Source of the DNA: Deltaproteobacteria bacterium
Lineage (GTDB): Bacteria > Myxococcota_A > Polyangia > JAAYKL01
Direction: 5' to 3'
Length of the DNA: 64,000 bases
Assembly: GCA_016935665.1 (NCBI GenBank)
Contig: JAFGQN010000073.1
Coordinates: 21,943 to 85,942, forward strand
Shown here: piece by piece, positions 5,090-62,087 of the stretch
Layout of the letters: each line of letters opens with the position of its first letter
Position numbering within the stretch: the stretch's first letter is position 1
Made by a program: the position numbers and the translations under genes
The notes under the pieces: generated by a model
Told to the model about the DNA's origin: nothing
The model's input: only the letters and a program-made list of their open reading frames with translations
Databases searched by the model: none

Positions 5090-5399
5090 TTTTTTCTCCT
5101 GTAGTCGAAACACATGCGAATGACGATTTTGTCGTTTTTTGAACCTTTTTTGTAGCGACAATTTCAGCAGAAATCAAGGTTTTTCCGGTTTCGGGCGAAT
5201 CCGGTACCATTGATATATCGCTGTGCAATCGTTACAATAAAAATCCTTTTTGTTGGTGTGTCGGCGTGGTCTGGTATTTTTATCGGAATGGTCGGTGAGT
5301 CGTCGGTAACGAAAATTTTTGTGATAGAAGAGAGAGGCGCTTTATTGCGATGAGTAAAAGAAATTTTTTACAATATTTTTAGTCGGATTTCGTGAATTT

Positions 5400-17365: not shown

Positions 17366-17581
17366 TATTCTATACTGCTTTATAATCTGCTGCCGAAGCA
17401 TTTTAAGTGTTGTCATTTTTGAGTGCCGTACGGTACATGTATGGTAAATCAGCACCAACAGATATTCTGCGCTTGAATCGACTCATAGGCTTTAGTAAAA
17501 GTTACGAAACCTTTGGTTGGGTGTGGTTCGAAAAAAAATTCGGGGTATGGTTAACGCTTGCGAAGAAGCGGTTGGCAAACG

Positions 17582-19465
17582 ATGAGATGCGAAATATGCG
17601 GCGCTCCTCTTGTGAGCGATAACAACAGTGGACAAACAGTGTGCAGGCGGTGCATGACCAAAACACCGGAGGCAAGTCGCTATTCCAACATGCCCAGGCC
17701 TCTGCCGTCCACGCAACCAGAGATTTCAAATCATTCAGGAAAACCAAGAAGTGCGGTGGGAACCATGGCCACCGGTTTTATGCGCCCGGGCGCGTCGCGT
17801 CCACCTCAAAACGACGATTCCGACACGCCGCTGGTATACCGCAGTACCGCGCCAGGACCCATTTTTGACGATATGGGGGAAGCATCGCCATCGCATGTGA
17901 CCGATGGGGGCGCGCGTCATACGCAACCAACAGCAGCGTCTGCTGTTTCAGCTTATCGGCGGGAAGAGCGGGAGACAAAGGATCCGGCTATTTTCAAAGA
18001 CAGTTTCGGCAGTGCAGCGGAGCGCGCAAATCTGCCCCTGCCCGAAGCGAGGAGAGACACGCCTGTGATTCAGCCCACCAGCGTGGTGCTGGACGGCAAA
18101 TACCGGCTGATTGATGAACTGGGGCGCGGTTCGATGGGAACGGTTTTTCTCGCTGAAGATATTTTGCTTCGACGCAAAGTTGCGGTGAAATTTTTGCTGC
18201 CGGAACTGGCGCATTCCACTGAATGTTGCATTCGGTTCAAGCGGGAAGCCATTGCCATGGCATCGATTCGAAATGAGAGTGTGGCACAGATTTTTTCCTA
18301 TGGTGAAGATATGGGGACACCTTATTTCGTGATGGAATATCTGGAAGGTCAGACGGTTGAAGAGTTGATTGATGCCTATAATCGTCGCGGTTTGTTCATT
18401 CCCCTAAAGAAAGCCGTTCTTATAATGAGCCAGGTTATTGGTGGCGTGGCCGCCATCCATAACGCCAATGCGGTTCACCGGGATATTAAGCCCGGCAACG
18501 TGATGATTACGTATGATCCCATGCGTGCGGTGATCATGGATTTTGGTTTGGTGCGGGACATTAAGGTGCAGGACGATATGCGCACACTGGCGGGGACCCC
18601 TGCGTACATTGCGCCGGAGCTGGTGGAAGGCAAAACGGAGGACGCCAAGAGCAAGTTGGCCGATATTTACTCCCTCGGCGCGACGTTCTATGAACTGGTT
18701 ACCGGAGCCATCCCTTTTATGGGCAATTCCTGGGTGGAGATTTTACAAAAGCATATCGCGGAGATTCCCAGATTTCCATCCAGTCTCAGGCCGGGATTGC
18801 CGGAGTCATTTGATGATCTGATTCTGCGCGCCATGTCAAAGGTGCCCGATGAGCGGTATCAGAGTGGCGAGGAGCTGCTGGACCATCTGTTGCAGATTTC
18901 CGAGGATGCGAACATCATGGATACACCGGGCTCATCCCGGGCCCCCAGATCCTCGCTGTTCAGTCATCCGCCCGCGAGCGCCAATAGTGCCGGCGCGCGC
19001 ACGTCCTCAAGTGGTGTTGTCCGCCGGTATTCCTCTTCAGCCCCTGGCATTTCACCAGTTGCGTCCAGCGCGTCGGGGACATTGCTGGTGGCGGATGCCG
19101 ATACCCGTTTTCGATCGAATGTGTACAGTAAAGTCAAAGCCAATGCTCCGGATATTCGCATCCACTCCGCCACAGACGGGTTGATGGCGATGGACCTTTT
19201 AAAAACCTATCATCCCGATGTCCTGCTTATAAATCTGGCATTGCCTGAAATGAACGGCTTTGAAATTGTGGCTTCTATTGTGGCCGAACGGGACGAATTC
19301 CAGACGAATGTCATCGTGGTCTCTGAAAACAGCGGCGCCACAGGGATGAAGGATGCGCAGTTGCTTCGCGCCATGGGGGTGGACCATTTTTATGCCAAGC
19401 CGGTGGATGAAGATGCGTTGCTGGAAGCGATGATGCCGCTGCTGGAGGGTTCCGGCAACGCATAG
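17582..19465 (+). CDS. Ser/Thr protein kinase with N-terminal zinc ribbon and C-terminal response-regulator receiver domain
   Basis: CEICG...CRRC zinc ribbon. Hanks kinase motifs GRGSMGTVFLAEDILLRRKVAVK, HRDIKPGNVM, DFGL, GTPAYIAPE. C-terminal REC-like segment (LLVADADTRFR ... DVLLINLALPEMNGFE). Confidence 0.8.
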   Translation: MRCEICGAPLVSDNNSGQTVCRRCMTKTPEASRYSNMPRPLPSTQPEISNHSGKPRSAVGTMATGFMRPGASRPPQNDDSDTPLVYRSTAPGPIFDDMGEASPSHVTDGGARHTQPTAASAVSAYRREERETKDPAIFKDSFGSAAERANLPLPEARRDTPVIQPTSVVLDGKYRLIDELGRGSMGTVFLAEDILLRRKVAVKFLLPELAHSTECCIRFKREAIAMASIRNESVAQIFSYGEDMGTPYFVMEYLEGQTVEELIDAYNRRGLFIPLKKAVLIMSQVIGGVAAIHNANAVHRDIKPGNVMITYDPMRAVIMDFGLVRDIKVQDDMRTLAGTPAYIAPELVEGKTEDAKSKLADIYSLGATFYELVTGAIPFMGNSWVEILQKHIAEIPRFPSSLRPGLPESFDDLILRAMSKVPDERYQSGEELLDHLLQISEDANIMDTPGSSRAPRSSLFSHPPASANSAGARTSSSGVVRRYSSSAPGISPVASSASGTLLVADADTRFRSNVYSKVKANAPDIRIHSATDGLMAMDLLKTYHPDVLLINLALPEMNGFEIVASIVAERDEFQTNVIVVSENSGATGMKDAQLLRAMGVDHFYAKPVDEDALLEAMMPLLEGSGNA

Positions 19466-48727: not shown

Positions 48728-49114
48728 ATGCAGATTCGGTTAAAGGGTGAAATCTCTCTGGAGTTGGAGAACGGATTTACGATTAGCTACAGAATGATGG
48801 AGCTGCTCATGGTTATTGAAAAAACCGGCTCCCTGAACCAGGCCGCTAAAGATTTGGGTGTCTCGTACTCGCATTCATGGAATATTCTGAATCGGTTAAA
48901 CTGCCAGCTGCAGCAGCCTATTGTCATTACCCAAAGGGGCGGAAAAGGCGGCGGCATCGCGCAGCTTACAACTGCCGGCAAATCACTTCTTCAAAAATAT
49001 CTGACTGTGCGCAGTACCTTCTTTGAAATACTGGAAGGGTATTGCATCTCCATTGATGATATAGCCGTTGCGGATGACTCACCCAAACCTGACGTTTCAA
49101 AGAAAAAAGTGTGA
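48728..49114 (+). CDS. ModE N-terminal-domain (wHTH) family transcriptional regulator, lacking Mop/TOBE domains
   Basis: ISYRMMELLMVIEKTGSLNQAAKDLGVSYSHSWNILNRLNCQLQQPIVITQRGGKGGGIAQLTTAGKSLLQKY aligns closely with the E. coli ModE N-terminal domain, including the GGKGGGG motif. GAAGAGG RBS. Only about 128 aa. Confidence 0.6.
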   Translation: MQIRLKGEISLELENGFTISYRMMELLMVIEKTGSLNQAAKDLGVSYSHSWNILNRLNCQLQQPIVITQRGGKGGGIAQLTTAGKSLLQKYLTVRSTFFEILEGYCISIDDIAVADDSPKPDVSKKKV

Positions 49115-49150: not shown

Positions 49151-50329
49151 TCATGGAATGTTTGCCGGTTTTCTTTCGGCATGTCTTAAAATGTCATCCA
49201 GCTGTTCATCCGAAAGCGAAATTCGATAAAACAGTTTATACGCCTTTTTGAATTCCTGCCGGATGTCAAAGGGGTACAAATTGGGATATATCAGATGGGC
49301 CAGCCATTTTACGCCGACAATGCGATTCACCGATGGTGGTCTGTCGAAAACATTAAAGGGCGTATACGGAATCTGAAACAGCAGTCCGTTCTTCACAGCC
49401 TTCAGCGAAAAGAATCGGCTGTCTTTTAAAATACTGTCGTATGTTTTGCGCTCGTTACCGAATCCCAAATCCTGGCAGACCAGAATCATATCCGGATTCC
49501 AGACAAGCAGTTGCTCCGGCGATACCTGCGCCCTGCCCATGCCGCCTCTGCCTTTGGTGACTTTTAGCACTTCAGTGGTGGCCACATTTTTGGCGCCAAC
49601 CATTTCAAGCAATTCCGAATGCAGTGACCCGGTCGGATCCGTATTCAGGCCTTCCGGCCCTTCCGCGTAATACACACGGATTTTCTGATCTTCAGAAATG
49701 GTGGCCGCGGTTTTGTCGATTTCTGCCAGCATATCTTCCACATACGCTGCCAGCGCATTGGCGCGTTCCGACTCCTCAAGCACACTGCCCGCAAAACGAT
49801 AAATGGCCGGCAGTTTTCTGATTCCCGCATCGATCACAATCACAGGAATACCCACCATCGATTCAATCCGGTTTGCCAAATCAATTGCCGCCCGATTTAA
49901 AGACGCATTTTCAGCGGTATGTATCATCACATCCGGCGCAGTCTTCATAATCTCTTCGATGTTCCCCTCCTTTCCCGCATACCAGCCCCCCAACACCGGT
50001 AGTTTAAGATACGCGTCACAAAGGTATTGTCGCTCAACAGTGGTGGGCGCCCAGTTCAGTCCCGCGATCTTCGAAGGGTTCAGCGTATACATTAAAAGGG
50101 TTCCCATGGGGCTTCTGCTAAACACCGACTGTATCTTTTCAGGGATGGATACCTGTCTTCCCGCCATGTCAGTAATGATTCTGGTTTTAGGCCGCGCGGC
50201 CGACGGTGCGCTCAACGGCGCATCCGATGACGGCCCGACATGGTCCTGTTGCGAAAAGACAAACACGGTTACAGCAATGCAACCGGCAAGCAGTAACACC
50301 ACATATCTGACTATACGCTTTTTATTCAT
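49151..50329 (-). CDS. ABC transporter periplasmic substrate-binding protein (FecB/BtuF-like, metal-chelate type)
   Basis: Class III PBP pattern. The start at MNKKRIV forms an ATGA overlap with the ATPase gene stop. Confidence 0.7.
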   Translation of the reverse strand: MNKKRIVRYVVLLLAGCIAVTVFVFSQQDHVGPSSDAPLSAPSAARPKTRIITDMAGRQVSIPEKIQSVFSRSPMGTLLMYTLNPSKIAGLNWAPTTVERQYLCDAYLKLPVLGGWYAGKEGNIEEIMKTAPDVMIHTAENASLNRAAIDLANRIESMVGIPVIVIDAGIRKLPAIYRFAGSVLEESERANALAAYVEDMLAEIDKTAATISEDQKIRVYYAEGPEGLNTDPTGSLHSELLEMVGAKNVATTEVLKVTKGRGGMGRAQVSPEQLLVWNPDMILVCQDLGFGNERKTYDSILKDSRFFSLKAVKNGLLFQIPYTPFNVFDRPPSVNRIVGVKWLAHLIYPNLYPFDIRQEFKKAYKLFYRISLSDEQLDDILRHAERKPANIP

Positions 50330-51174
50330 ACGGCTTTCTCTTTTATCGATGACATGTTCTGTGACGGATGCCGCAGACAGGGAACACACACGCTGACCGG
50401 ACTGTCGATATTGTTGTGCATCTCTTTTACCACCACATCCACGCCGTATACGTTTCGCATTAACGACGACGTGACAACAGTTTGAGGGCATCCGGTTCGG
50501 GTCATGGCGCCGCGGTTAAACACAACCACACGGGTGCCCAACTGCAGCACCTGATCAGGAGAATGGGTGGTCATAATGATTCCTATGCCGCGTTCCTTCA
50601 GTTCCAGAATACGTTCAAGAATTCGAATCCGGTTGCCAAAATCCAGATTCGATGTGGGCTCGTCCAGCACCAGATATCGCGCATCCTGCGTCAGCGCCCT
50701 GGCGATAAGCACCATCTGACGCTCGCCACCGCTCAACCGGCTGTATACTTTTTTTGCCAAATGAGAAATGCCAAGCGACGCCATGCATTCCTGTGCCTTT
50801 TCGCAGTCCAAAGGAGACGGTCCAAGCATCGAATTCACATGAACGCCGCGTCCCATCAGCACCACCTCCTCCACAGAAAATGGAAATGGCACATTGGCAA
50901 ACTGCGGCACATAGGCAATTCTGGTGGCCAGTTTCGAAGGCTTCATTTGGGCCACATCTGTGCCGTCGATAAACACTTTTCCGTCAAGGGGTTTAATAAA
51001 CCCAAGCAGCGTTCTGAAAAAAGTTGTCTTCCCCGCGCCATTGGGGCCAAACAAACAGACGACTTCTCCTTCATCCAGAGAAAAGGAAACATCCTGAACA
51101 ACAATTTGTTTACGGCCGTTTTTACTGTTCGTTCTGCCGTAGCCACACGACAGGTTTACACACTCAAGTGTCAT
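50326..51174 (-). CDS. ABC transporter ATP-binding protein (FecE/BtuD-like)
   Basis: Walker A GPNGAGKTT, LSGGERQ signature and LVLDEPTSNLD Walker B. Confidence 0.85.
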   Translation of the reverse strand: MTLECVNLSCGYGRTNSKNGRKQIVVQDVSFSLDEGEVVCLFGPNGAGKTTFFRTLLGFIKPLDGKVFIDGTDVAQMKPSKLATRIAYVPQFANVPFPFSVEEVVLMGRGVHVNSMLGPSPLDCEKAQECMASLGISHLAKKVYSRLSGGERQMVLIARALTQDARYLVLDEPTSNLDFGNRIRILERILELKERGIGIIMTTHSPDQVLQLGTRVVVFNRGAMTRTGCPQTVVTSSLMRNVYGVDVVVKEMHNNIDSPVSVCVPCLRHPSQNMSSIKEKAV

Positions 51175-52256
51175 CGGCAGCTCCTTTGCTTACAGAAAAT
51201 CAGGTACAGAAAAAAAGGCGCCCCAATCAATGCGGTGATAATACCCAGGGGAATTTCGACCGAAACGCTGGAACGGGCGATGTCATCAACAATCATTAAA
51301 TAGATGGCGCCTGTCAGCATGGAAAACGGGACCAGCGTTTTGTGATCGGGACCGGTTATCATTCTGCAGATGTGTGGAATAATCAACCCAACCCAGCCGA
51401 TGATGCCGCTGATTGAAATGGCCGCCGCGGTAATAACGGTTGAACAGACAATAATCATCAGGCGCAGAGGCCCGGTATTTACCCCAAGTGACCTGGCCTC
51501 ATCATCGCCAAAAGACAAAATATTGAGTTTCCAGCGAACCAGAAAAAGCGGAACGCTTCCCAGGGCAATTGGCAGCGCAACAGATCGCACATCATCCATG
51601 TTCACCGAGGCCAGACTTCCCATGAGCCAAAAGGTAATGGCCGGCAGTTTATCGGTGGGATCGGCCACATACTTTGTAAGCGAGATAAACGACGCGAAAA
51701 CCGTGCTGACCACCATTCCCACCAGAATCAGCATGATCACCGAATCGCTGTCCCGCTTGAGCGCCCGGCCAAACAGGCATGTGATGGACACGGCGACACT
51801 GCCAAAACCAAAGGCCATCAGCTGAACACCGGCCAGATTCATCGACAGCAGAATCCCAAGGGCGGCGCCAAACCCGGCCCCGCTTGACACACCCAGAATT
51901 CCCGGGGACACCATTGGATTTCTGAATATGCTCTGATAAATCGCGCCCGACAGCGAAAGCGCACTGCCGGTCATCGCCGCAGCCAGGATGCGCGGCAACC
52001 GAACGTTAAAGATAACCGTGTTGACGGTTGCAAAATCGTTCAGCGGCAACCGTGCCACTTTAAGCCACAGCAGCGTGAACAGCTGTTCGACACTCACGCC
52101 GTAACGACCGGTTGTAAAAGAAACAAGCACTGTGATCAGCAGCAATGCAAAATAAAACGCGCTGCTCTTTGCCAGTCTCCGAAAAAAACCTGGCTGGGAC
52201 GCTGCATTCAAAAATTGAGTCGACATTGGGTTTCCAATCGATAACTGCGCCTGCAT
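51171..52256 (-). CDS. FecCD-family ABC permease
   Basis: About 9 TM helices typical of BtuC/FecCD permeases. 4-nt overlap with the ATPase gene. Confidence 0.8.
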   Translation of the reverse strand: MQAQLSIGNPMSTQFLNAASQPGFFRRLAKSSAFYFALLLITVLVSFTTGRYGVSVEQLFTLLWLKVARLPLNDFATVNTVIFNVRLPRILAAAMTGSALSLSGAIYQSIFRNPMVSPGILGVSSGAGFGAALGILLSMNLAGVQLMAFGFGSVAVSITCLFGRALKRDSDSVIMLILVGMVVSTVFASFISLTKYVADPTDKLPAITFWLMGSLASVNMDDVRSVALPIALGSVPLFLVRWKLNILSFGDDEARSLGVNTGPLRLMIIVCSTVITAAAISISGIIGWVGLIIPHICRMITGPDHKTLVPFSMLTGAIYLMIVDDIARSSVSVEIPLGIITALIGAPFFLYLIFCKQRSCR

Positions 52257-52260
52257 CTTT

Positions 52261-53073
52261 TCAATCTGCTGTTATCCGCTGATGGGACGCCTCGGCGTCG
52301 TTCATGAGTTTTTGAATTTCCGCGAGAATATTAAACGCGATGCCTAAAGGATTGTTCTGCCCAATATCGAGCCCGATGGGGCTGTAAACCCGATCGTCAA
52401 TAACGCCCCCGTTGTCTGTAATCGCCTTAAACCGGGCAACAACCTTGTTGCGGCTGCCCATCATGCCAATGTAGGGAACAAGGGGGTTTTCAAGCAACTG
52501 TGCCAGCACCTCTCCGTCGTGCTGATGGCCATAGGTCATAATCACGCAGTAGCTCTGAGATGTGAGATGTATCCGTTCCGCGATGTGATCCCACTCGGCA
52601 ACCACCCGTTCGGCGGCGCCGGGGAACCTGGCTTTTGTGGCATACTCGGGACGGCTGTCAAATACACGATAGGGCTGCCCCAGCACCTCGCAAAGCTTTC
52701 CAAGGTGCTCCCCCACGTGACCGGCGCCAAAAATAACAATTTCCTTTTGCGCAACTATAGGCTCCACCAGAATGGAAAGCCGACCACCGCAGTCGCCCAC
52801 AACAACCGTATCGGCGTCTTCCTCTGACCACGCGTCTTCATTAAGAACATAATGAATCAGTCGGCATTTTCCGGCGGCAATGGCATTAATAGCCGCCTTT
52901 CTGGCGTGATGCTCAACACCGCCGCCCCCCACCGTGCCCGCGCAGACATCGTGAATATTGACCACCATTCGGGCGCCCTGTCCCTGAGGCGTGCTGCCTT
53001 TGCTTTCGACAATAGTTACCATCGCGCAGGGAATGCCCTGCCGGGTCCAGTGCATCAACTGTTCAAGCCACAT
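52261..53073 (-). CDS. XdhC/CoxI-family protein (molybdenum cofactor insertion chaperone-like)
   Basis: N-terminal XdhC_CoxI region and a C-terminal Rossmann domain (IVIFGAGHVGEHL). The ORF extends to 53091; the start is uncertain. Confidence 0.7.
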   Translation of the reverse strand: MWLEQLMHWTRQGIPCAMVTIVESKGSTPQGQGARMVVNIHDVCAGTVGGGGVEHHARKAAINAIAAGKCRLIHYVLNEDAWSEEDADTVVVGDCGGRLSILVEPIVAQKEIVIFGAGHVGEHLGKLCEVLGQPYRVFDSRPEYATKARFPGAAERVVAEWDHIAERIHLTSQSYCVIMTYGHQHDGEVLAQLLENPLVPYIGMMGSRNKVVARFKAITDNGGVIDDRVYSPIGLDIGQNNPLGIAFNILAEIQKLMNDAEASHQRITAD

Positions 53074-53854
53074 GAGATACCTCCAAATCAATTTCTGGTT
53101 GAATAATATTAAAATGCCGCACCGCGCCCGCTGGCGCTTTCTTCATACTCGTACCGCCGTGCTGCAGGTATGACATCAGTCCGTTGGCATCACACACCTC
53201 AGTCCCACCCGCCGCATGAATACCAAACTCGAAAAGCCGCGCGCTGACAGGAACAGTGGGACCGACAATAATGCGCGCTCTGGCGTTGGGTGTGCGTTTG
53301 ACGACATCGTGAAAAGTGCCATTGAGCAGGGTGAGTCCGGTGAGGAAAACCAGCGATGCATTTTTAAGCGGTTCATCCGCATCGTTCCAGTGAATGTCTC
53401 CAGCTCTTGGCGCCAGCTCAACAATGGTGACCGGATATCCCGACTGACGCCACATGGCTGCTGTCTCAAAATGGCCAATAAAGCAGCTGGGTTCGGTTAT
53501 AACACACTCTGCAAAGTGCGCCATCGCATCACCATATCTGACTTTCTGTGGCTCACGAATGCCTGCGTTGAGGCAGGCCATGGCGGCTGCCCGATGCACG
53601 ACTTCTCTTGAAGCGAACCCCTCTGCCACCACGTCACGGACCGGTCGTCCGAGCCAGTGCGATATATCGGTATTCCCAGGGCACAGCAGGTCGGTTGCAG
53701 GTTCAGGAATACTGACCACCGCGACTCTGTCAACGCAGGCGACCACCCAGTGACGAAAAACGTGCAGGGACGCCACTGTCGAATCGGGGTTCGCCAGGTC
53801 TTTTAGCAATGATTGAACAAGTCTCTGATTCATAATGTATTCTCCCTTATTCAC
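53063..53854 (-). CDS. DUF364/DUF4213-like protein (Rossmann-like, putative metal-chelate handling); paralog of 61317..62087
   Basis: About 45% identity by eye to the 61317..62087 product over the full length. Confidence 0.55.
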   Translation of the reverse strand: MNKGEYIMNQRLVQSLLKDLANPDSTVASLHVFRHWVVACVDRVAVVSIPEPATDLLCPGNTDISHWLGRPVRDVVAEGFASREVVHRAAAMACLNAGIREPQKVRYGDAMAHFAECVITEPSCFIGHFETAAMWRQSGYPVTIVELAPRAGDIHWNDADEPLKNASLVFLTGLTLLNGTFHDVVKRTPNARARIIVGPTVPVSARLFEFGIHAAGGTEVCDANGLMSYLQHGGTSMKKAPAGAVRHFNIIQPEIDLEVSHVA

Positions 53855-53878
53855 TTTTCCATCGATGCTGCGCCTGCA

Positions 53879-56071
53879 TTAAATCTGCGTTCCGACGCCA
53901 ACAATTATTTCGCGCCCCGGTCTGGGTTCGAAGCGACCAATGACATAGTTGGCGTCTGTGAGATTAAAACCGTCGATATACAGGTAACCGCCCTTAAGCG
54001 GCGCAAAGACCGGTTCATAGCGGATATGACTGTTCAGTAAAACAAAGTCAGGCGTCCGGTCCCTTACCCACTGGTTCGTCGCGTCAGAGTATTCTGCGTG
54101 CTGACCGGAATTGTACACAGCCTCCAACGAGGCGGTCAGTCCAAAATCGAAATTGAGACGGGCACCGGCCACAACCCTGTGAGGCGTGATATAGTTGATG
54201 CGAATGTCGTTTATGAGATCTTTCGAAAAAAGATATCGGTATCCCCCGTGAATCTCAAAAAGCGGAACCGGCGTGTACCGAATGTCGAACTCGGTGCCTG
54301 CAGTAACTGCGCGACCAATATTGTCAAACGTGCCCTCGTTTTTTTCGATGAGATTGCGAATGCGGCTGCCAAAAACATGAAACGAGGTATCAAGGCCGGC
54401 AAAGGGGATGTCACTGCTTTCCAGACCAAGCTCTCCCATCCACGCCTCTTCCGGCTCAAGGTCCAGATTGCCTCCCACCACATTTTCGAAGAGCTCCTTC
54501 AACAGGGGAAGCCGCACCTTATGTCCCACTTCGGCTGTTGCCCGAATTCTTTTCGAAAAAGTAACCTCCGCTGCGAAACGCCCCTCAATACCCGGAATCA
54601 ACCGGTTGTCCACAGGCAGGCTCTCACCCTCAACCTTTTGAGCCAGCAATGACATGCCGCTAACACCCAGCCCGGCATTGAGGCGCAGCTTTCCCAACAC
54701 CTGTGTGTCTTCAATGGCCGCGGTATATTTATGGGATACATAGTGCTCCCACGCCCCCCACCGCGTTGCGCCATTTTCGTTCGGCACGGGCAAATCGTGC
54801 TGTCGATGACGATCGAGATCATAATGAAGCCTGAGCTGAAGGGTATTGCCACTGACAAGCGCCCACTGTCCGGCAATATCGGCGCCAAAGCTTTCGTTGG
54901 CATAAGCGGATTTTATAAACCACGCTTTGGGATTGTCTGTTAAATGCGTGTGGGTGGCGTCTGTGTAATCATGAAGACCATCGCGATGAATATGCGTGTA
55001 CAGATGTGCTTCAATGCCCCTGAACCCAAAGGTTGCCGGCATGGTTTCAGGCCCCAGCGTTCCTTTTAGCCCCACAAGAAAGGTATCGTAGCGATTAAAG
55101 CGCCAGTATCTTGTAAACCCGCTTTGCGTAAACGGTGGAATGCTGCGGGGCGCATGAATGGTGTTGGCAAAAAGGGTCAGTGATTTGTTGCGGCGAGGTG
55201 CATAGCGGGTCATCAGCGTGAGCGACGCCCTCTGATAGTCGCTGCCATCGCGCACGCCACCCGATTCATGATAGGAAACGTTTTTTTCGGTTTCCTTATA
55301 TGAGTCCGACAACGGGTACCCATCGGAGCGCTCGTAACCGGCGCCAAAAAAAGTGGTGACATCTCCAGTCTGAAAGCACAGGTTTGATCTGGCGCCAAAC
55401 AGGGTCATCTCACCATCGGAAGGACGGCTATACACCGTTGTATCCATGGTTTGACGGCATGCATCGGGAACACTCAGACGCACAACACCACCGGTTGTAT
55501 TGGGACCATAAAGCGGTGAGACAACCCCTTTTTCGAGTGTAATATCTGCAAGGGCAAACACCGGCAGCGCGTCGATTTCGAAATGGCCGTCATACACTTC
55601 TGCAACAGGGATGCCTTCGAAAAGAATCTGGATTGATTTCTCATTATAGCCACGAATCTGCAGCGTGGCCCCGGTCTTTGGAGCCCTGTTCACCTCCACT
55701 GCGGGTTCAAACGACAACACATCGGGTACAGTGCGCGCACCGCGGCGCTGAATTTCATCACTGTCTATTTTTGTTCTTGTCCCAACCGGTTCAGTCCGTT
55801 TTGCCAAAACGACTGTGGTGTACCCCTCATCTGTTGCCACTTCGCCAGTGTCATCCGTTTTTGTCTGTGCAAAAAGGGATGTGGAAATACCCAGCACTAT
55901 TCCTGTAAAAGTCGCTGGAATTACGGATGAAATGAAGATGTTTTTACGTGGACGACGCTGTTGGTTCATAGTGGTTACCATCGCTACACACTTTCCCATG
56001 CAGAATTTTTTTCTGCGGCAAATCCGCCGAATGGATGTATCCGGCATCCCGGTGGCGCCGTATTGGTTCAT
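53879..56071 (-). CDS. TonB-dependent outer-membrane receptor
   Basis: Signal peptide, TonB-box-like region and plug domain (GATLQIRGYNEKSIQILFEGIPVAEVYDGHFEIDALP ... GGVVRL), followed by a long beta-barrel. An alternative start lies at 55969. Confidence 0.8.
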   Translation of the reverse strand: MNQYGATGMPDTSIRRICRRKKFCMGKCVAMVTTMNQQRRPRKNIFISSVIPATFTGIVLGISTSLFAQTKTDDTGEVATDEGYTTVVLAKRTEPVGTRTKIDSDEIQRRGARTVPDVLSFEPAVEVNRAPKTGATLQIRGYNEKSIQILFEGIPVAEVYDGHFEIDALPVFALADITLEKGVVSPLYGPNTTGGVVRLSVPDACRQTMDTTVYSRPSDGEMTLFGARSNLCFQTGDVTTFFGAGYERSDGYPLSDSYKETEKNVSYHESGGVRDGSDYQRASLTLMTRYAPRRNKSLTLFANTIHAPRSIPPFTQSGFTRYWRFNRYDTFLVGLKGTLGPETMPATFGFRGIEAHLYTHIHRDGLHDYTDATHTHLTDNPKAWFIKSAYANESFGADIAGQWALVSGNTLQLRLHYDLDRHRQHDLPVPNENGATRWGAWEHYVSHKYTAAIEDTQVLGKLRLNAGLGVSGMSLLAQKVEGESLPVDNRLIPGIEGRFAAEVTFSKRIRATAEVGHKVRLPLLKELFENVVGGNLDLEPEEAWMGELGLESSDIPFAGLDTSFHVFGSRIRNLIEKNEGTFDNIGRAVTAGTEFDIRYTPVPLFEIHGGYRYLFSKDLINDIRINYITPHRVVAGARLNFDFGLTASLEAVYNSGQHAEYSDATNQWVRDRTPDFVLLNSHIRYEPVFAPLKGGYLYIDGFNLTDANYVIGRFEPRPGREIIVGVGTQI

Positions 56072-56143
56072 CGCAATGCAAATGCGTTGGGTTTGTCTCC
56101 CTCTCGCATTATCGTTATGCTTTCGAACTATAACGACTGGCCT

Positions 56144-56174
56144 TCGTTATTCTGCCATAGCATAACGCGTGCCA
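56144..56174 (-). promoter_or_regulatory. Conserved cis-element copy C (sigma-54-like TGGCAC-N-GC core plus CGTTAT-N11-ATAACG inverted repeat) upstream of the TonB receptor operon
   Basis: Minus strand reads TGGCACGCGTTATGCTATGGCAGAATAACGA, 73 nt upstream of the 56071 ATG. It matches copies A and B. Confidence 0.55.
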
Positions 56175-56585
56175 TCAATGGTGCTGACCTTGCTTTCGGG
56201 CATCTGCGCGCAGGAGTTTTCGCCTCGCCCGTCAAATTTTTAACTGAGGAAAAATGCGCGAATTATAACGGCACAACTAAGAAAAACATTAAAATCACAG
56301 GACAGAAACGGCGTTGCCGGGGTTGGCAACGGCCATCTGTTTTCTCGCATCACGCCTTGCGTCACAAAAACTATTGTGTAAGTAATTATCCTTGCGACAC
56401 CGGCGGAAAGACACTTTGAGTGGATCTTTTTTGTTACATATATGTTGTTTGAAAGCATTCAATTCTACATCATTGTCAGAAATGGCATCAGAGATCACGG
56501 CGCTGAAAACCGCTTCTCCAAAAGAGAACGTAAAAAAAAGGGAATCACAACAATGCAAACGGTTTGAGAATGATACCAGGGCGCA

Positions 56586-57665
56586 TCAGCACGCCTGGAT
56601 GGCAGCGGTTTTAAACAGGCACCATACATTTCGACCTGGTTCCATGCACATGCGCCGTTGTGACTCGCCGGTTATTTCAACCAAAAGCCTGAAGCCTACA
56701 TCAACAGCGCATAATGTGGAGCCGTTTCGTTCGACAATGTCTTCAATTTTACCTTCGATCTGATTTTGAATGGTGACATTGTCAAGTGCCGAAAATGACA
56801 GGGAAATGTCATCTGCCCCCACAAACAGTTTTACCGACTGCCCCGGCGATGAGTTCACTTTTCCCATGTCACATTTTACGCAGACCCTTCGTGAATTATT
56901 TTTCAAGCATAAAAAGGTAAGCCCCGTAGCTTTGTCCGTTCCCGCAACCTGCATCTCAACGGCATTGAGAGGCGAGCGTTTTCCGATTATCTCTGCAGAT
57001 TTATCCGATTTTAACAGTTGGTAGTATTCATCGTGGCCAACACACTTGCCGTCTTTAATAAGACAAAGGGTATTGGTCAATTTCAGCAGGTCCGGCAGGT
57101 CGTGACTGACAACCAGAATTGGCATGTTAAATGTGCGTTGAACCTTTAATATAAACGGCAGAATCTGCTCCCGCAATTGCATATCCACAGCGGAAAATGG
57201 TTCGTCCAAAAAGAGTATGTCCGGTGATGACAAAAGCGATCTGCCCAGCGCTGTCCGTTGTCGCTCGCCGCCGGATATGGCCGACGGCTTGCATTTAAGA
57301 AGGTGTTTCAAATCGAGCATGTCGACAACATCATCAAAAAACACGGTTGCAGCTCTGTCTTTTTTCACGCCGTATCTCAGATTTTTTTCCACTGTCATAT
57401 GAGGAAACAGTCGGCCCTCCTGAAACACATACCCCACATTGCGATTTTCAACGGGAACATTCACACCTTTTTCCAAATCCAGCAGCACTCTGTCTCCGGC
57501 GACAATGCGCCCTTTTTTAGGCTTCACCAAACCCGCCAGTGCCTGCAGCAGCGACGTCTTTCCAGATCCGCTTTGCCCAAAGATTCCGGTAATCCCGTTT
57601 TGAAACGTTTCGCGTATCTCCACATCGAAATGTTTTCTTTCAAGAACAATATCCACATCTATCAT
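56586..57665 (-). CDS. modC: Molybdate ABC transporter ATP-binding protein ModC (with C-terminal TOBE/Mop-like domain)
   Basis: Walker A GQSGSGKTS, LSGGERQR signature and a C-terminal about 130-aa TOBE-like domain. Confidence 0.75.
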   Translation of the reverse strand: MIDVDIVLERKHFDVEIRETFQNGITGIFGQSGSGKTSLLQALAGLVKPKKGRIVAGDRVLLDLEKGVNVPVENRNVGYVFQEGRLFPHMTVEKNLRYGVKKDRAATVFFDDVVDMLDLKHLLKCKPSAISGGERQRTALGRSLLSSPDILFLDEPFSAVDMQLREQILPFILKVQRTFNMPILVVSHDLPDLLKLTNTLCLIKDGKCVGHDEYYQLLKSDKSAEIIGKRSPLNAVEMQVAGTDKATGLTFLCLKNNSRRVCVKCDMGKVNSSPGQSVKLFVGADDISLSFSALDNVTIQNQIEGKIEDIVERNGSTLCAVDVGFRLLVEITGESQRRMCMEPGRNVWCLFKTAAIQAC

Positions 57666-57728
57666 AATTCACTTCCGGCATTTTCATTGGTCAAATGAAC
57701 CTTTTCACGAGTTTTCAACATGCCACTT

Positions 57729-58043
57729 TCAAAGGCGAGCTGTCTTCATTCGGCGCAGATACCATTGAGACAATGCCATTGCTAAAAAAGAAATCAGCAC
57801 TGACACCATCACCATACGAAAGGTGGCGTGTTCTCTGCGGTATTTAATGTGCTGTCCGAAGGCGTTGTCAGTGCCAAATCGTTTTGCGGGTTTCATGATC
57901 TCACCGAACCCATTAACAGGCGTTGCAGCGGCTTTGGCATCGCTTGTAAACAAATTCGACCTGCAGGAAGGCAAAAGCATCAGCGCCAGAAATGCTGCGC
58001 GAACAGATGGCCACATTGTCCTGTGTAATTTCGATTTAATCAT
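57729..58043 (-). CDS. Small hypothetical lipoprotein/membrane protein upstream of modC
   Basis: LLPSC lipobox-like motif and a C-terminal TM segment. The start is uncertain. Confidence 0.3.
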   Translation of the reverse strand: MIKSKLHRTMWPSVRAAFLALMLLPSCRSNLFTSDAKAAATPVNGFGEIMKPAKRFGTDNAFGQHIKYRREHATFRMVMVSVLISFLAMALSQWYLRRMKTARL

Positions 58044-58401
58044 CTTTCCTACTCGGTAAGGGTCAGGTTGAAGATTTGCGTTATATGCATCGCAAATAAC
58101 GTACCATGCACCACAGTGAGGCGACACCGCCGCTGCCGCCTGAAAAATTCAGTATCTCGCGCTTTGAAGACTTTACAGGTGTCCATCAAATTAACTTTGG
58201 AAAGTTACATTTGGGTACTTTTGGATGAGAAATGCTACAATTCGGAATATTCCAGAAAGCGTCGACCATTCGTGGCGCTATTTACCAATTCATTGCAGTG
58301 TCAGAGTTCAGAATTGTACAAACTTTGAGTTTTTGCCACGCTCTCAAATACTGGCAACGCCTGATTGGTGCAGTATCCCGTCATGTCCTCAATGCAGATT
58401 G

Positions 58402-58430
58402 TGGCACGTTATATGCGATAAGAATAACGA
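58402..58430 (+). promoter_or_regulatory. Conserved cis-element copy A upstream of modA (and divergent from the modC side)
   Basis: TGGCACGTTATATGCGATAAGAATAACGA, 52 nt before the modA ATG. GG-N10-GC spacing as in sigma-54 promoters. Inverted repeat CGTTAT/ATAACG with an 11-nt spacer. Confidence 0.55.
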
Positions 58431-58481
58431 TGCGGCAATAAAAAAAAATGACTTTTTTTATATTTCAAAGGAGCATCTGCC

Positions 58482-59258
58482 ATGTCATGCACACGTGTGT
58501 TAATTTTCGCTTTTGGCGTCCATTTTATGCTTGCCTGTTCGCCGGAACCACCACAACCCACCGATATGCTCAATGGAAAATCTGCTGGTGGACCTGCTGA
58601 AATCTTCGTCGCCAGTGGCGCAGGGTATCGAAAACCCATTGACGAAATAAAATTTCTCTTCGAAAAGAAAACGGCCATCGCCGTGAACTGCATTTATGGA
58701 AACATGCGGCAGATTACCACTCAGGCAAAAACCAGCGGTAAAGTAGCTGTCATTATAGGCGACGTTAAATTTTTAAACAAAATGGACATTTCGTTTAAAA
58801 AGGAAACCGCCATCGGCATTGGCAGACTCGTCATTGCGGCACGGAAAAACCTACCGCTGAATGGTATTGATGATCTGACGAAATCCGAGTTTGACCGAAT
58901 TATTGTCCCGGATTCAAAAAAGGCAATATATGGCCGAGCCGCCTTTGAAGCCATGACCAAACGGAACATTTATAAACAAATACAACCCCGACTGATCACC
59001 GTTCAAACCGTTCCCCAGGTCACATCGTATCTGGCAGGCGGCACCGCTCAGGCCGGCTTCATGAACCGAGCCGATTTTCTCTCCCTCAACCCCAATAAAT
59101 TCAAGGCAATCGACATAGACAGGTCACTATATGAATCAATTATTATTGAAGCGGCCCTAACCGAACACGCAACAGACGCGGCCGAGCAATACATGCGCTT
59201 CCTGCAAAGCGATGCCGCGAAAGGCGTGTTTGACAGGTTTGGTTTAGGTCTTGAATAA
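58482..59258 (+). CDS. modA: Molybdate ABC transporter substrate-binding protein ModA-like
   Basis: Signal peptide and a PBP2-type fold resembling the ModA family (IFVASGAGYRKPIDEI ... AAKGVFDRFGL). Confidence 0.7.
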   Translation: MSCTRVLIFAFGVHFMLACSPEPPQPTDMLNGKSAGGPAEIFVASGAGYRKPIDEIKFLFEKKTAIAVNCIYGNMRQITTQAKTSGKVAVIIGDVKFLNKMDISFKKETAIGIGRLVIAARKNLPLNGIDDLTKSEFDRIIVPDSKKAIYGRAAFEAMTKRNIYKQIQPRLITVQTVPQVTSYLAGGTAQAGFMNRADFLSLNPNKFKAIDIDRSLYESIIIEAALTEHATDAAEQYMRFLQSDAAKGVFDRFGLGLE

Positions 59259-59926
59259 TGCGCGTTCACCTTTTTGCCGATAGACTGTTTTCTCTATCGC
59301 TTTCGTTTAAAATTGTGTTTGCCGCACTGCCGATTCTGCTGCTCGTTGCGATGCTTATATCTTTTTGGGCCATGAATGCGAGAGGCAGCACGCGATTGTG
59401 TATCGATGTGTGCCTGACACTTCCCATTATTTTCCCCCCAATCGGCATCGGTTTCCTGCTGGTGTATCTGTTTGGCGCGCACGGCATACTTGGGCAGATA
59501 TTGGGTATTGACCTGATATTCAGCTTTCCAGGACTGGTGCTGGCCGCCTGCATTACCGGGATTCCTTTTATTGCGCAGCCGATTGTTACAGGCATGGACG
59601 GCAGGCTTATCAATCTGTGCGAGGCCTCCCATACCATGGGCAAAGGGAGAACCACCACTTTTTTCAGGCTGGTTTTGCCCTTGTTAAAAAGCAATATTAT
59701 CGCCGGCGCTCTGCTTGCCAGTGCGCGTATTCTTGGAGAAGTGGGCATTTCTCTGATGATAGGTGGCAACATCAAAAACAAAACAAACACCATCTCTCTT
59801 GAAATCTACAACGCGGTACTGGACGGTGAAAACCATGAAGCGCTAGTGTTGTCTTTGTTTCTCATTGTCATTTCAATTTTAATATTCTCCTTAATCAGAT
59901 TTTTAACCCGTAAAGAAACCTGGTAA
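59258..59926 (+). CDS. modB: Molybdate ABC transporter permease ModB-like
   Basis: Five to six TM helices with an EAA-like loop (CEASHTMGKGRTTTFFRLVLP). Translationally coupled to modA. Confidence 0.75.
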   Translation: MRVHLFADRLFSLSLSFKIVFAALPILLLVAMLISFWAMNARGSTRLCIDVCLTLPIIFPPIGIGFLLVYLFGAHGILGQILGIDLIFSFPGLVLAACITGIPFIAQPIVTGMDGRLINLCEASHTMGKGRTTTFFRLVLPLLKSNIIAGALLASARILGEVGISLMIGGNIKNKTNTISLEIYNAVLDGENHEALVLSLFLIVISILIFSLIRFLTRKETW

Positions 59927-60009
59927 TCAGACAGTGGCGGCTCGAAATACGCGGCGATTTTAAGTCGTGAATGGGCTCTCATTGGTTCCATGCAGTCCAG
60001 TATCCAAAC

Positions 60010-60038
60010 TGGCACGTTATATGCTCTCAGAATAACGA
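60010..60038 (+). promoter_or_regulatory. Conserved cis-element copy B upstream of the porin gene
   Basis: TGGCACGTTATATGCTCTCAGAATAACGA, 70 nt before the porin ATG. An upstream block ATTGGT..GCAGT..CAGTATCC is also shared with copy A. Confidence 0.55.
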
Positions 60039-60107
60039 AACCGAAGCGCACTCTTTCGGAGTGGCGTTCCATTGAAACGGCTGTTCACCTGATGCGGAGG
60101 TAAAGTT

Positions 60108-61280
60108 ATGCGTCACACAACACACTTGTCTATTATCGTTTTCGTTCTCATGTTCACTGGATCTGCAGTCGCTTATTCACAGGCAGCTGAAAACGGCAAC
60201 GATTTAAACAGCGCTGTAAGCACCGGTGCGCCACAAATAGTGTCTTCACCAAACCTTGCCGGATATGATGGCGGAGTTCATGTCACTGACAAAAATTCCC
60301 GATTTCATCTGCTCATTAATGGCATGGTAAAAACACGATTTGACCTTTCTGGCGATGAAATGGTTCAGAAGCCAGAGGGGATGGCATCCGATGTGACGCG
60401 CACCTTTCACTCCTCGTTCAACGTGCCGTTTGCACGGCTAATGTTTTCGGGGCACGTCTTCAGCAACAAACTCAAATACACACTTTTTTACGACTTCTCT
60501 AAAAACAAACTGATTTATGCTTTTTGGGCGTGGCACTTCATTCCGAAAAAACTGGTGCTCAAGGCGGGTAGGTTCAAAAGGCCTTTTGCACGCGCGTTTC
60601 TAGCGTCGTCGGTGCGGCGACAGTTCATCGACACCCCGCTGGGAATGCTTGGGCATGGCATTGACGTGGGGATTGAACTTGGCAACTGCTATTCCAACGT
60701 AAACGGTTTCGAATGGGCCATTGGTGTTTTCAATGGCAGCCCTGGAACATCGGGAGATTTATCGCCCAACATCACCGCCCGGCTGGGATACAACAACGGC
60801 ATTAAAGGATACGAGGAAACGGACTTCAATGGGGGCGGTTTCAGATACGGCTTTGGTATTAGTGGGTCGACGGAGTTTGATCATGACAACAACAACGCCA
60901 CAGTTCATTATGCCGGCGCCGATGTCATCGTCAAAGCCCATGGGTTCAGTGCAAATGGCGCAGTGTATCTCGGCGGCAGCGCAATGGATACTATTTTTGA
61001 TGAATCGAGAATGAGGCATGTGGGAGGCCATATCCAGGCAGGAATTGTCATTGGCCACCTGGTGGAGCCAATCGTGCGATACGGTTTTACCCATGAGCGT
61101 CATGTAAAAGACGATGTGCAACATGCGTTTACCGGCGGCGTGACGTTGCATTTTATCCCCAACCATCATCTCAAATGGGAAAACAATTTCACCATACACA
61201 ATACACCGCTGCCAGACAGCGCCCCTCAGAATGCGCTGGTTGATATGCTGTTCGTCAGTCAGCTGCAGCTGTTTTTTTAA
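60108..61280 (+). CDS. Outer-membrane porin (phosphate/anion-selective porin O/P-like)
   Basis: Signal peptide, beta-strand periodicity and a C-terminal Phe. Confidence 0.6.
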   Translation: MRHTTHLSIIVFVLMFTGSAVAYSQAAENGNDLNSAVSTGAPQIVSSPNLAGYDGGVHVTDKNSRFHLLINGMVKTRFDLSGDEMVQKPEGMASDVTRTFHSSFNVPFARLMFSGHVFSNKLKYTLFYDFSKNKLIYAFWAWHFIPKKLVLKAGRFKRPFARAFLASSVRRQFIDTPLGMLGHGIDVGIELGNCYSNVNGFEWAIGVFNGSPGTSGDLSPNITARLGYNNGIKGYEETDFNGGGFRYGFGISGSTEFDHDNNNATVHYAGADVIVKAHGFSANGAVYLGGSAMDTIFDESRMRHVGGHIQAGIVIGHLVEPIVRYGFTHERHVKDDVQHAFTGGVTLHFIPNHHLKWENNFTIHNTPLPDSAPQNALVDMLFVSQLQLFF

Positions 61281-61316: not shown

Positions 61317-62087
61317 GTGACTGATATGCGAATGTCCCTTGTAAAAAAATTGATTGCAAGCATGCAAAACCCGGACGCAATAGTCGAGGAACTTTGGGTG
61401 TTTCGTCACTGGGTGGTCGCTAAAACGTCAGTGGTCAGCATCCCTGATGCGGGTCCCGAAGGTCTCTGCTGCGGACGCAGTGATTTGTCAGACTGGCTGC
61501 ATAAACCAGTCCGCGAGGTGGTACCGGCGGGTATGACGTCACGGGATGCAGTGAGACGCGCCGCTGCAATGGCATGCCTGAACGGCTGTATTCGGCCAGC
61601 CAAAAGCATGTATGAAGGCAACTCAATTATACCGTTTGCCCAGATGGTGCGCAACGTGCCCACCTGCTTCATCGGACATTTTCAGGAAGCAGAACGATGG
61701 CGCAGCCTGGGATATCCGGTTACCATTGTTGAGCTGTTACCCCGCAAAGGAGATGTTCACTGGCTGGACGCAGATGAACAGCTGGCGCAGTGTCGCATAG
61801 TGTTTATCACCGGGCTGACATTGTTGAATGATACTTTCGAGCAGGTGATTGGCCGTACTCCCAACGCCAGAATCCGTGTTTTACTGGGGCCCACGGTACC
61901 CCCAACCGCGGCGTTACTGGAATGCGGCGTGCATGTAGTGGGCGGCACGAAAGTGGTTCATTTTGAGAAGTTACTGAAATATTTTCAATATGGCGGAACG
62001 AGTATAAAAAATGTGCCTGCCGGCGTTATTGAACGATTCAACATTGTACATCCCGGTTTGCAACTGAAAATGCAAAATGTAGCCTGA
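61317..62087 (+). CDS. DUF364/DUF4213-like protein, paralog of 53063..53854
   Basis: Conserved blocks shared with the paralog: VFRHWVVA, RRAAAMACLN, CFIGHF, GYPVTIVEL, FITGLTLLN, RTPNAR, GPTVP, YGGTS. Confidence 0.55.
   Translation: MTDMRMSLVKKLIASMQNPDAIVEELWVFRHWVVAKTSVVSIPDAGPEGLCCGRSDLSDWLHKPVREVVPAGMTSRDAVRRAAAMACLNGCIRPAKSMYEGNSIIPFAQMVRNVPTCFIGHFQEAERWRSLGYPVTIVELLPRKGDVHWLDADEQLAQCRIVFITGLTLLNDTFEQVIGRTPNARIRVLLGPTVPPTAALLECGVHVVGGTKVVHFEKLLKYFQYGGTSIKNVPAGVIERFNIVHPGLQLKMQNVA

Follow-up and report, generated by a model that had tools for sequence, protein, structure and literature searches.

A ModE-like inverted repeat at fixed registers within sigma-54-like promoter elements: a putative molybdate/tungstate acquisition regulon in a deltaproteobacterium

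The 64-kb stretch of contig JAFGQN010000073.1 of a Deltaproteobacteria bacterium (hereafter, the window) encodes a split molybdate-type transporter, a porin, and a TonB-dependent receptor operon, and upstream of each of these lies a composite element in which an inverted repeat, CGTTAT-N11-ATAACG, is fused to a sequence of the form TGG(C/T)ACG-N4-(A/T)TGC. A first-pass annotation, made from the letters alone, had described three copies (A, B, and C below), with coordinates and letters that are exactly as it quoted them; a scan of the window, however, gives five repeats and four putative promoters, copies D and E having been overlooked. The five sites are as follows.

Composite A: 58402..58430, plus strand; GG at 58403-4, GC at 58415-6, repeat at 58407-58429; upstream of modAB.
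Composite B: 60010..60038, plus strand; GG at 60011-2, GC at 60023-4, repeat at 60015-60037; upstream of porin-DUF364.
Composite C: 56144..56174, minus strand; class 2 register (defined below), TGGCACG-CGTTAT-GC; GG at 56173-2, GC at 56161-0, repeat at 56145-56167; upstream of the TonB-receptor operon.
Composite D: 58079..58106, minus strand; TGGTACGTTATTTGC at 58106-58092, repeat at 58079-58101; faces a 95-amino-acid (aa) open reading frame (ORF) and modC.
Operator E: 56113..56135, no strand assigned; repeat alone, with no -24/-12 element; read on the minus strand, it follows C at a distance of 10 nt.

The genes and other features around these sites are listed next; the identities first proposed for modA, modB, modC, the porin, the TonB receptor, and XdhC are borne out by Pfam and NCBIfam.

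modA: 58482-59258, plus strand; above the TIGR01256 cutoff.
modB: 59258-59926, plus strand; Pfam/NCBIfam.
Porin_O_P-like porin: 60108-61280, plus strand; Pfam.
DUF364 protein: 61362-62087, plus strand; coordinates from the public assembly.
95-aa ORF between promoter D and modC: 57729-58016, minus strand; no family match.
modC: 56586-57665, minus strand; has a TOBE domain and passes the TIGR02142 cutoff.
Terminator-like hairpin: 56312..56331, minus strand; predicted, separating modC from promoter C.
Six-gene operon of TonB-dependent receptor (Plug), DUF364 protein, XdhC, FecCD permease, ABC ATPase, and periplasmic binding protein: 49151..56071, minus strand; Pfam/NCBIfam.
ModE N-terminal-domain-only regulator, 128 aa, no Mop domain: 48728..49114, plus strand; HTH_1, TIGR00637, alignment with E. 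coli ModE, PDB 2ijl.

The exact matches to CGTTAT-N11-ATAACG, at 56113, 56145, 58079, 58407, and 60015, are all intergenic and clustered within 4 kb, against a chance expectation of 0.10 per window, and none of 100 shuffles reaches five. When the spacer was freed to 8-14 nt, the same five repeats, and no others, were recovered from the window, each with N11, so that the exactness of the spacing noticed at the outset holds for all of them; allowing up to two mismatches added just three scattered matches where 1.46 are expected, that is, chance level. For TGGYAC-N5-WTGC, the window has five matches where chance predicts 0.86, and all but one of them coincide with the repeat. Each of the four fused copies is oriented toward the gene downstream, the targets being modAB, porin-DUF364, modC, and the TonB-receptor/DUF364/XdhC/FecCD operon; the fifth repeat, E, is bare and lies 3' of the receptor promoter. 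The inclusion of modC in the presumptive regulon was correctly anticipated, but its supposed dependence on copy A was not, given that modC has a promoter-operator of its own, copy D. Similarly, the distance of 52-73 nt to a start codon stands if ORF starts are used and fails for copy C with the NCBI start of the receptor: the longest ORF (53879-56071, minus strand) has 730 aa and starts at 56071, whereas the NCBI protein has 696 aa and starts near 55969, and this start, 34 codons shorter, puts copy C ~175 nt upstream and would extend the leader from ~77 to ~180 nt. The repeat is absent upstream of the regulator gene (48728-49114), and autoregulation of this gene was accordingly rejected.

The comparison with related loci draws on 15 sites, from the window and from nine metagenome loci reached via ModA, the regulator, and the receptor. 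In the alignments of these sites, the element is nearly invariant while the flanks diverge. The composite precedes modA in L002, L050, and L056 (sites orthologous to A at L002 9875, L050 2836 on the minus strand, and L056 2418) and the porin gene in L002 and L045/L051 (orthologous to B at L002 10522, L045 4580 and L051 4810, the latter two on the minus strand). As a TGGTAC variant like that of copy D, it precedes a gene for a second ModA-like binding protein in L002 (9572, minus strand) and L056 (2118, minus strand), in the position that the 95-aa ORF occupies in the window. In L053, the composite is found 5' of an operon for a binding protein, ModD, and the regulator, the latter only ~60-65% identical to that of the window. 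The receptor promoter composite is also conserved in L060, L062, and L063, and the second operator is kept in L060, where the counterpart of E (1668-1690) has one mismatch.

This pattern is hardly what would be expected if the copies had arisen by recent duplication within the genome or were a small dispersed repeat without regulatory function, an explanation to which we would give next to no credence. The element is retained at orthologous positions in loci where the proteins are only 50-80% identical, and it is found only before Mo-related operons, always facing the gene. What such a scenario can draw on is the upstream block that the first-pass annotation had described as shared between copies A and B. 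The block is present in the window, as a weak similarity extending ~50 nt upstream, but is not seen in the relatives and, hence, is probably a trace of duplication. A non-functional repeat was rejected on the strength of the conservation at orthologous positions.

Equally improbable, in our estimate, is that the conserved sequence works as RNA, be it a Moco/Tuco riboswitch or a leader hairpin. The transcribed repeat could form a 6-bp hairpin, and Moco riboswitches are often found 5' of mod genes (PMC11672702); the possibility had been raised already in the initial interpretation. The search for RF01055, however, gave no match at the gathering score in the whole window or at E<=10 in 55900-60300, and no other relevant Rfam family matched; the leaders, taken from the presumed starts, fold like shuffled sequences (z = -0.4, +0.9, -2.0, and +0.4); and the 6-bp stem shows no covariation, its hexamers being conserved in sequence and the spacer being free. 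A Moco riboswitch or other RNA element was thus rejected, for lack of both an Rfam match and leader structure.

The two components of the composite do not keep a single register with respect to each other, and this allows them to be told apart. In class 1 sites (TGGCA-CGTTAT-ATGC), the repeat starts 3 nt after the GG, and in class 2 sites (TGGCAYG-CGTTAT-GC), 5 nt after it, with GG-N10-GC constant in both. Each class is conserved across lineages, and all five receptor promoters examined (window, L060, L061, L062, and L063) have the shifted register of copy C. GG-N10-GC is retained in 14 of the 15 sites, in both registers; conservation of the inner flank is confined to the left side (ATGC or GCTA), the right being variable. 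Even where half-sites have decayed, to CGTTGT before modA in L002 and to CACAACG before modA in L050, TGGCAC and TGC remain intact. The constancy of GG-N10-GC across two registers, together with the one-sided inner flank, indicates a -24/-12 unit that is separate from the palindrome. Aligned in the promoter register, the 15 sites give the consensus tGgcAcG...TaTGCt. The consensus of sigma-54 promoters is TGGCACG-N4-TTGCW, and TGGCACG-N4-(A/T)TGC(T) agrees with it at 11 of 12 positions and with exact GG-N10-GC spacing; in the window, GG and GC exactly 10 nt apart, as expected within TGGCAC-N5-TTGC, are present at all four composite sites. No sigma-70-like promoter was predicted in the four intergenic regions, and sigma-70 promoters were rejected because these regions contain no such hexamer pair. 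The -24/-12 reading of the spacing, proposed initially from three copies, is strengthened by the comparative data, and the window promoters appear to be of the sigma-54 type.

There are, nevertheless, observations that weigh against this assignment. Neither an enhancer-binding protein nor rpoN was found in the window, where Pfam searches of the large ORFs and a six-frame motif scan gave no Sigma54_activat domain, GAFTGA motif, or RpoN-box, and none was found beside the L002 locus either. No upstream activator block is recognizable at the porin promoters or at the receptor promoter of the window. In L061, moreover, GG is changed to GA and the palindrome is extended into the -24 region, to GACATGCGTTATGC/GCATAACGCATGTC, so that at this site the repressor could read part of TGGCAYG. 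In favor of the assignment is the lineage: the window comes from a metagenome-assembled genome (MAG) labelled Deltaproteobacteria, the nearest genome match is a MAG of Polyangia, phylum Myxococcota, and Myxococcota generally encode sigma-54 and are rich in sigma-54 activators.

The same observations would be accommodated by a ModE-type operator with an asymmetric extension, in which TGGCAC...TGC is read by the regulator or belongs to a sigma-70 or extracytoplasmic function (ECF)-type promoter, with no involvement of sigma-54. Such an arrangement is suggested by the long palindrome and lost GG of L061, by the lack of an activator gene and rpoN in the window, by the porin promoters without an upstream activator site, and by the loose resemblance of GGCAC to the ECF -35 sequence GGAAC. 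Yet, the extension is always gene-distal, and TGGCA is mirrored on the right flank in no site but L061, leaving 14 of 15 sites one-sided. Furthermore, an operator extension would be expected to move with the repeat, so the fixed GG-N10-GC under a 2-nt shift of the repeat counts against it, as do the TGC, which is invariant although neither an ECF nor a sigma-70 promoter requires it, and the lack of sigma-70-like hexamer pairs already mentioned. On balance, we regard the extended operator as unlikely, although by no means negligible.

With respect to the palindrome, the best candidate for a binding protein is encoded at 48728..49114. The description of its product as a ModE regulator consisting of the N-terminal domain only holds up well: the protein matches HTH_1 above the Pfam cutoff as well as TIGR00637, is 37% identical to residues 7-103 of E. 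coli ModE, and has as its best structural match PDB 2ijl (4.8e-15), a 135-aa N-only protein, followed by 1b9m and 1o7l, all in agreement with a winged helix-turn-helix domain of the ModE type. In a tblastn search with E. coli ModE, residues 122-262 (the tandem Mop part) had no match anywhere in the window. The end of the protein at 128 aa and the missing Mop match place it in the N-domain-only subgroup rather than among full-length ModE proteins, and short N-only proteins make up the majority of the best 150 representative homologues of the regulator. A ModE-N homologue is encoded on every related locus that is long enough (L002, L045, L050, L051, L053, and L063), often adjacent to the motif; L001 and L059 have neither a homologue of the regulator nor the repeat on the DNA examined.

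The repeat itself points in the same direction. The modA operator of E. coli MG1655 is CGTTAT-ATTGTCGCCTAC-ATAACG, with a 12-nt spacer, so the half-site likeness to ModE operators that had been noted initially turns out to be identity of the outer hexamers, with a spacer 1 bp shorter in the window. The hexamers also fit the published ModE consensus, ATCGCTATATA-N6-TATATAACGAT, given as well in the form CGnTAT(ATA)-N6-(TAT)ATAnCG (PMC2700814, PMC545781). The fit is not complete, and the following points count against the assignment or set the repeat apart from a Mo-box: the hexamers of a Mo-box are 12 nt apart, and the spacer here is 11 nt in 5/5 window sites and in all sites of the related loci, the search for other spacings having covered the window and L056-L063; the right half of the repeat lacks the inner TATA symmetry; the match of the regulator to TIGR00637 (6.5e-22, 77.4 bits) is below the curated cutoff of 98.5 bits; and there is no molybdate-binding domain in the regulator and no separate Mop protein in the window.

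Accordingly, one has to consider that sigma-54 promoters are indeed involved but that the palindrome is bound by another protein, an activator or an unrelated repressor, with the ModE-N gene linked to it by coincidence. The absence of a sensor domain, a spacing unlike that of known ModE sites, and the lack of a repeat upstream of the regulator gene are all compatible with this possibility. It has to contend, however, with hexamers that recur unchanged in the E. coli ModE operator, with 37% identity to ModE in the helix-turn-helix region of the regulator, and with the joint occurrence of gene and motif in six related loci; an activator site at -21 to +2 would also be mechanistically implausible for sigma-54. 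We consider a different binding protein distinctly improbable.

Taken together, these data allow a tentative model, in which, by convention, the C of the -12 GC is taken as position -12. Each full copy would be a sigma-54-type promoter with TGG(C/T)AC at -24 and (A/T)TGC at -12, in the form TGGCACG-N4-ATGC(T), and with the 23-bp operator CGTTAT-N11-ATAACG inside it, spanning ~-21 to +2 for the class 1 register or ~-19 to +4 for that of class 2; for composite A, the transcription start site would be near 58428. A dimer of the 128-aa ModE N-domain-only protein would bind the palindrome and occlude the -12 element and the melting region, and, with this part of the promoter blocked, repression is the most likely action. 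Four units would be repressed in this manner: modAB, porin-DUF364, modC, and TonB receptor-DUF364-XdhC-FecCD-ABC-binding protein. Operator E, located at ~+13 to +35 relative to the putative start of promoter C, within the leader of the receptor operon, could add tighter or cooperative repression or act as a roadblock. Transcription would be activated by an enhancer-binding protein encoded elsewhere, acting from AATGTACATT-like blocks at ~-70 to -110 or from the GGAATATTCC palindrome midway between the modC and modA promoters, and the four units together would form a compact regulon for molybdate/tungstate acquisition. We consider this model, that is, sigma-54 promoters repressed by a ModE-N protein, to be probable, if well short of assured. 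The sequences themselves establish the presence of the element, its statistics, orientation, and conservation, the logic of its registers, and the genes around it; sigma-54 use, the start sites, the protein that binds, the direction of regulation, and the metal signal belong to the model. The interpretation given in the first-pass annotation is supported wherever it could be checked and is extended by these results.

Some candidates for the activator sites can be discerned. In the divergent spacer between modC and modA, three blocks are conserved in the window, L002, L050, and L056, namely, a central palindrome TTCGGAATATTCCAGAA and, flanking it in inverted orientation, GTTACATT and AATTGTACA. 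In the window, these are the following.

Central palindrome ACAATTCGGAATATTCCAGAAAG: 58238..58260, no strand assigned; seen in the alignment, at ~150 bp from each of the two divergent -24 elements, and possibly an enhancer common to both or the site of another regulator.
GTTACATT block: 58205..58212, plus strand; may be an upstream activator site, at ~-105 relative to promoter D.
TGTACAAT block, repeating the GTTACATT block in inverted orientation: 58313..58320, minus strand; may be an upstream activator site, at ~-87 relative to promoter A.

Of 14 promoters, 8 have blocks of the TGTACA type between -66 and -109, those of L053 and L060 among them, against an expectation of 0.034 per 60 nt. It is plausible that these blocks and the central palindrome serve as activator sites. 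The GGAATATTCC palindrome is located between the divergent mod promoters in the window (58244-58253), L002 (9714), and L056 (2260), and is also found 3' of the receptor promoter in L062 (2895). A copy of the palindrome 17-mer with 3 mismatches lies inside the coding sequence of the regulator (48875-48891, minus strand).

The receptor/FecCD/XdhC/DUF364 gene set hints at uptake and handling of a chelated molybdenum or tungsten (Mo/W) species rather than the free oxyanion. The linkage of the receptor with DUF364 (and XdhC) recurs in L060, L062, and L063, and two DUF364 paralogues are present in the Mo-type regulon. One could go further and imagine that, in this uncultured, Polyangia-like lineage, the entire Mo/W regulon runs on sigma-54 promoters under divided control, with a sensor-less ModE-N repressor on -21 to +2 and an unlinked enhancer-binding protein at AATGTACATT/GGAATATTCC that carries the metal or physiological signal, the TonB/FecCD/XdhC/DUF364 proteins importing and processing Mo/W chelated by a 'molybdophore'-type compound. 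This is a speculative proposal that we would not expect to prove correct in full. To our knowledge, there is no dedicated receptor/importer set for chelated Mo/W, and a literature search for one serving a 'molybdophore'-type complex found none.

The closest functional precedent comes from Rhodobacter capsulatus, where transcription of morAB, which has morC divergent to it, depends on NifA and RpoN and is repressed by MopA/MopB through a Mo-box, and mopA-modABC is activated by NtrC with the housekeeping sigma factor (PMC6925177). As in the window, a ModABC-like transporter is split there into a modAB-like operon and a divergent modC-like gene, and putative NifA and RpoN sites are combined with repression by the ModE family at a Mo-box; for the window, sigma-54 dependence and ModE-type repression are predictions from sequence. 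In R. capsulatus, however, the ModE homologues are full-length and include molybdate-binding domains, with NifA as the activator, whereas the regulator of the window has the N-domain only, there are no nif genes near the locus, and one fused promoter-operator design, with fixed registers, serves all four units. In E. coli, besides the shared hexamers and homologous N-domain, the operator of modABC overlaps the transcription start region, as the repeat overlaps the putative start here, but the spacer is 12 nt as opposed to strictly 11, ModE has a di-Mop molybdate sensor that is missing from the window regulator, and the modABC promoter is of the sigma-70 type. In comparison with canonical sigma-54 promoters, some of those studied here have conserved palindromic blocks ~70-150 bp upstream that are candidate activator sites, but the DNA examined includes no cognate activator or rpoN, and no enhancer is visible at two promoter types, those of the porin genes and that of the receptor operon in the window.

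Short N-domain proteins encoded near mod genes are not without parallel, being known from Desulfovibrio/Desulfotalea and from Agrobacterium tumefaciens (2ijl). The A. tumefaciens protein is reported to repress modA in response to Mo. For the ModE proteins of Desulfovibrio/Desulfotalea that consist of the DNA-binding domain alone, the mechanism of Mo sensing was described as unclear by Rodionov et al. (PMC545781), and the motif predicted in Desulfovibrio, CGGTCACG-N14-CGTGACCG, is unrelated to the repeat of the window, with no sigma-54 link described (PMC545781). What is distinct here is the combination of an N-only regulator with E. coli-type hexamers at N11, a single fused design in four units and two conserved registers, and a regulon that takes in a porin and the TonB receptor/FecCD/XdhC/DUF364 cluster. 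All the parts are known, and R. capsulatus provides a functional precedent, so the advance is incremental, a variation on an established mode of control rather than a system of a new type.

If the model is correct, it would nonetheless offer a natural example of a repressor operator set at a fixed register inside sigma-54 promoters throughout a small regulon and show how a ModE protein without a molybdate-binding domain is wired into Mo/W homeostasis, which was described as unclear in a 2004 comparative-genomics study (PMC545781). The two registers, which differ by a 2-bp shift of the repeat with GG-N10-GC unchanged, make a ready system for relating repressor position to the formation of the sigma-54 closed complex. 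Besides, the analysis flags the porin, the TonB-dependent receptor, the FecCD-type importer, XdhC, and the DUF364 proteins as candidate parts of Mo/W acquisition.

A scan of metagenomes for TGGCACGTTAT-N11-ATAACG gave 46 matches, among which L045 is the sole member of the present system; the others are unrelated contexts or chance matches at that database size, so the pattern alone is not diagnostic. A genome scan with ModA recovered only two loci, and the one in a Spirochaetes MAG is without the motif; for ModA homologues of at most 50% identity (L057-L059), the contigs either stop short of the promoter region or lack the motif.

Two other groups of metagenome contigs have elements of similar appearance. 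Seven AT-rich contigs share TGGCACGTTATYTGTnTnnRGTATAACG 60-130 nt 5' of lipoprotein genes, whose products (~230-275 aa) have no Pfam match, and no ModE-N homologue is present on the DNA examined from these contigs, which may represent a second, unrelated lineage that fused a -24/-12-like element to the same repeat. The sites are the following.

L006: 365-392; lipoprotein-linked element.
L007: 2394-2421; lipoprotein-linked element.
L008: 95-122; lipoprotein-linked element.
L026: 126-153, minus strand; lipoprotein-linked element.
L042: 2079-2106, minus strand; lipoprotein-linked element.
L043: 16-43; lipoprotein-linked element.
L044: 694-721, minus strand; lipoprotein-linked element.

In a group of near-identical contigs (L022 at 7326-7353 on the minus strand, L027 at 912-939, L028, L029, L031, L034, and L037), TGGCACGTTATTTGCAATATTAATAACG is found ~80-115 nt 5' of a gene for a DtxR-type regulator, which in the L022/L027 group combines Fe_dep_repress and FeoA.

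Two possible traces of gene decay or loss were encountered as well. In the window, positions 57842-57886 encode, in another frame, a 15-aa stretch with a 60% match to the second ModA-like binding protein, and the 95-aa ORF may be a remnant of a decayed binding-protein gene. In L002 (10001-10549), which belongs to a Polyangia MAG, the match to modA ends after approximately residue 191 and is followed by the porin promoter, modB being missing; the modA of the window has TCTGGCAGG at the L002 break point, as if L002 had undergone a deletion by microhomology with ...CTGGCACG or had been collapsed in assembly. Elsewhere in the window, and unrelated to the regulon, there are genes for a 1054-aa protein with an N-terminal TIR domain (1997-5161, minus strand) and for a Ser/Thr kinase fused to a receiver domain (17558-19465, plus strand).

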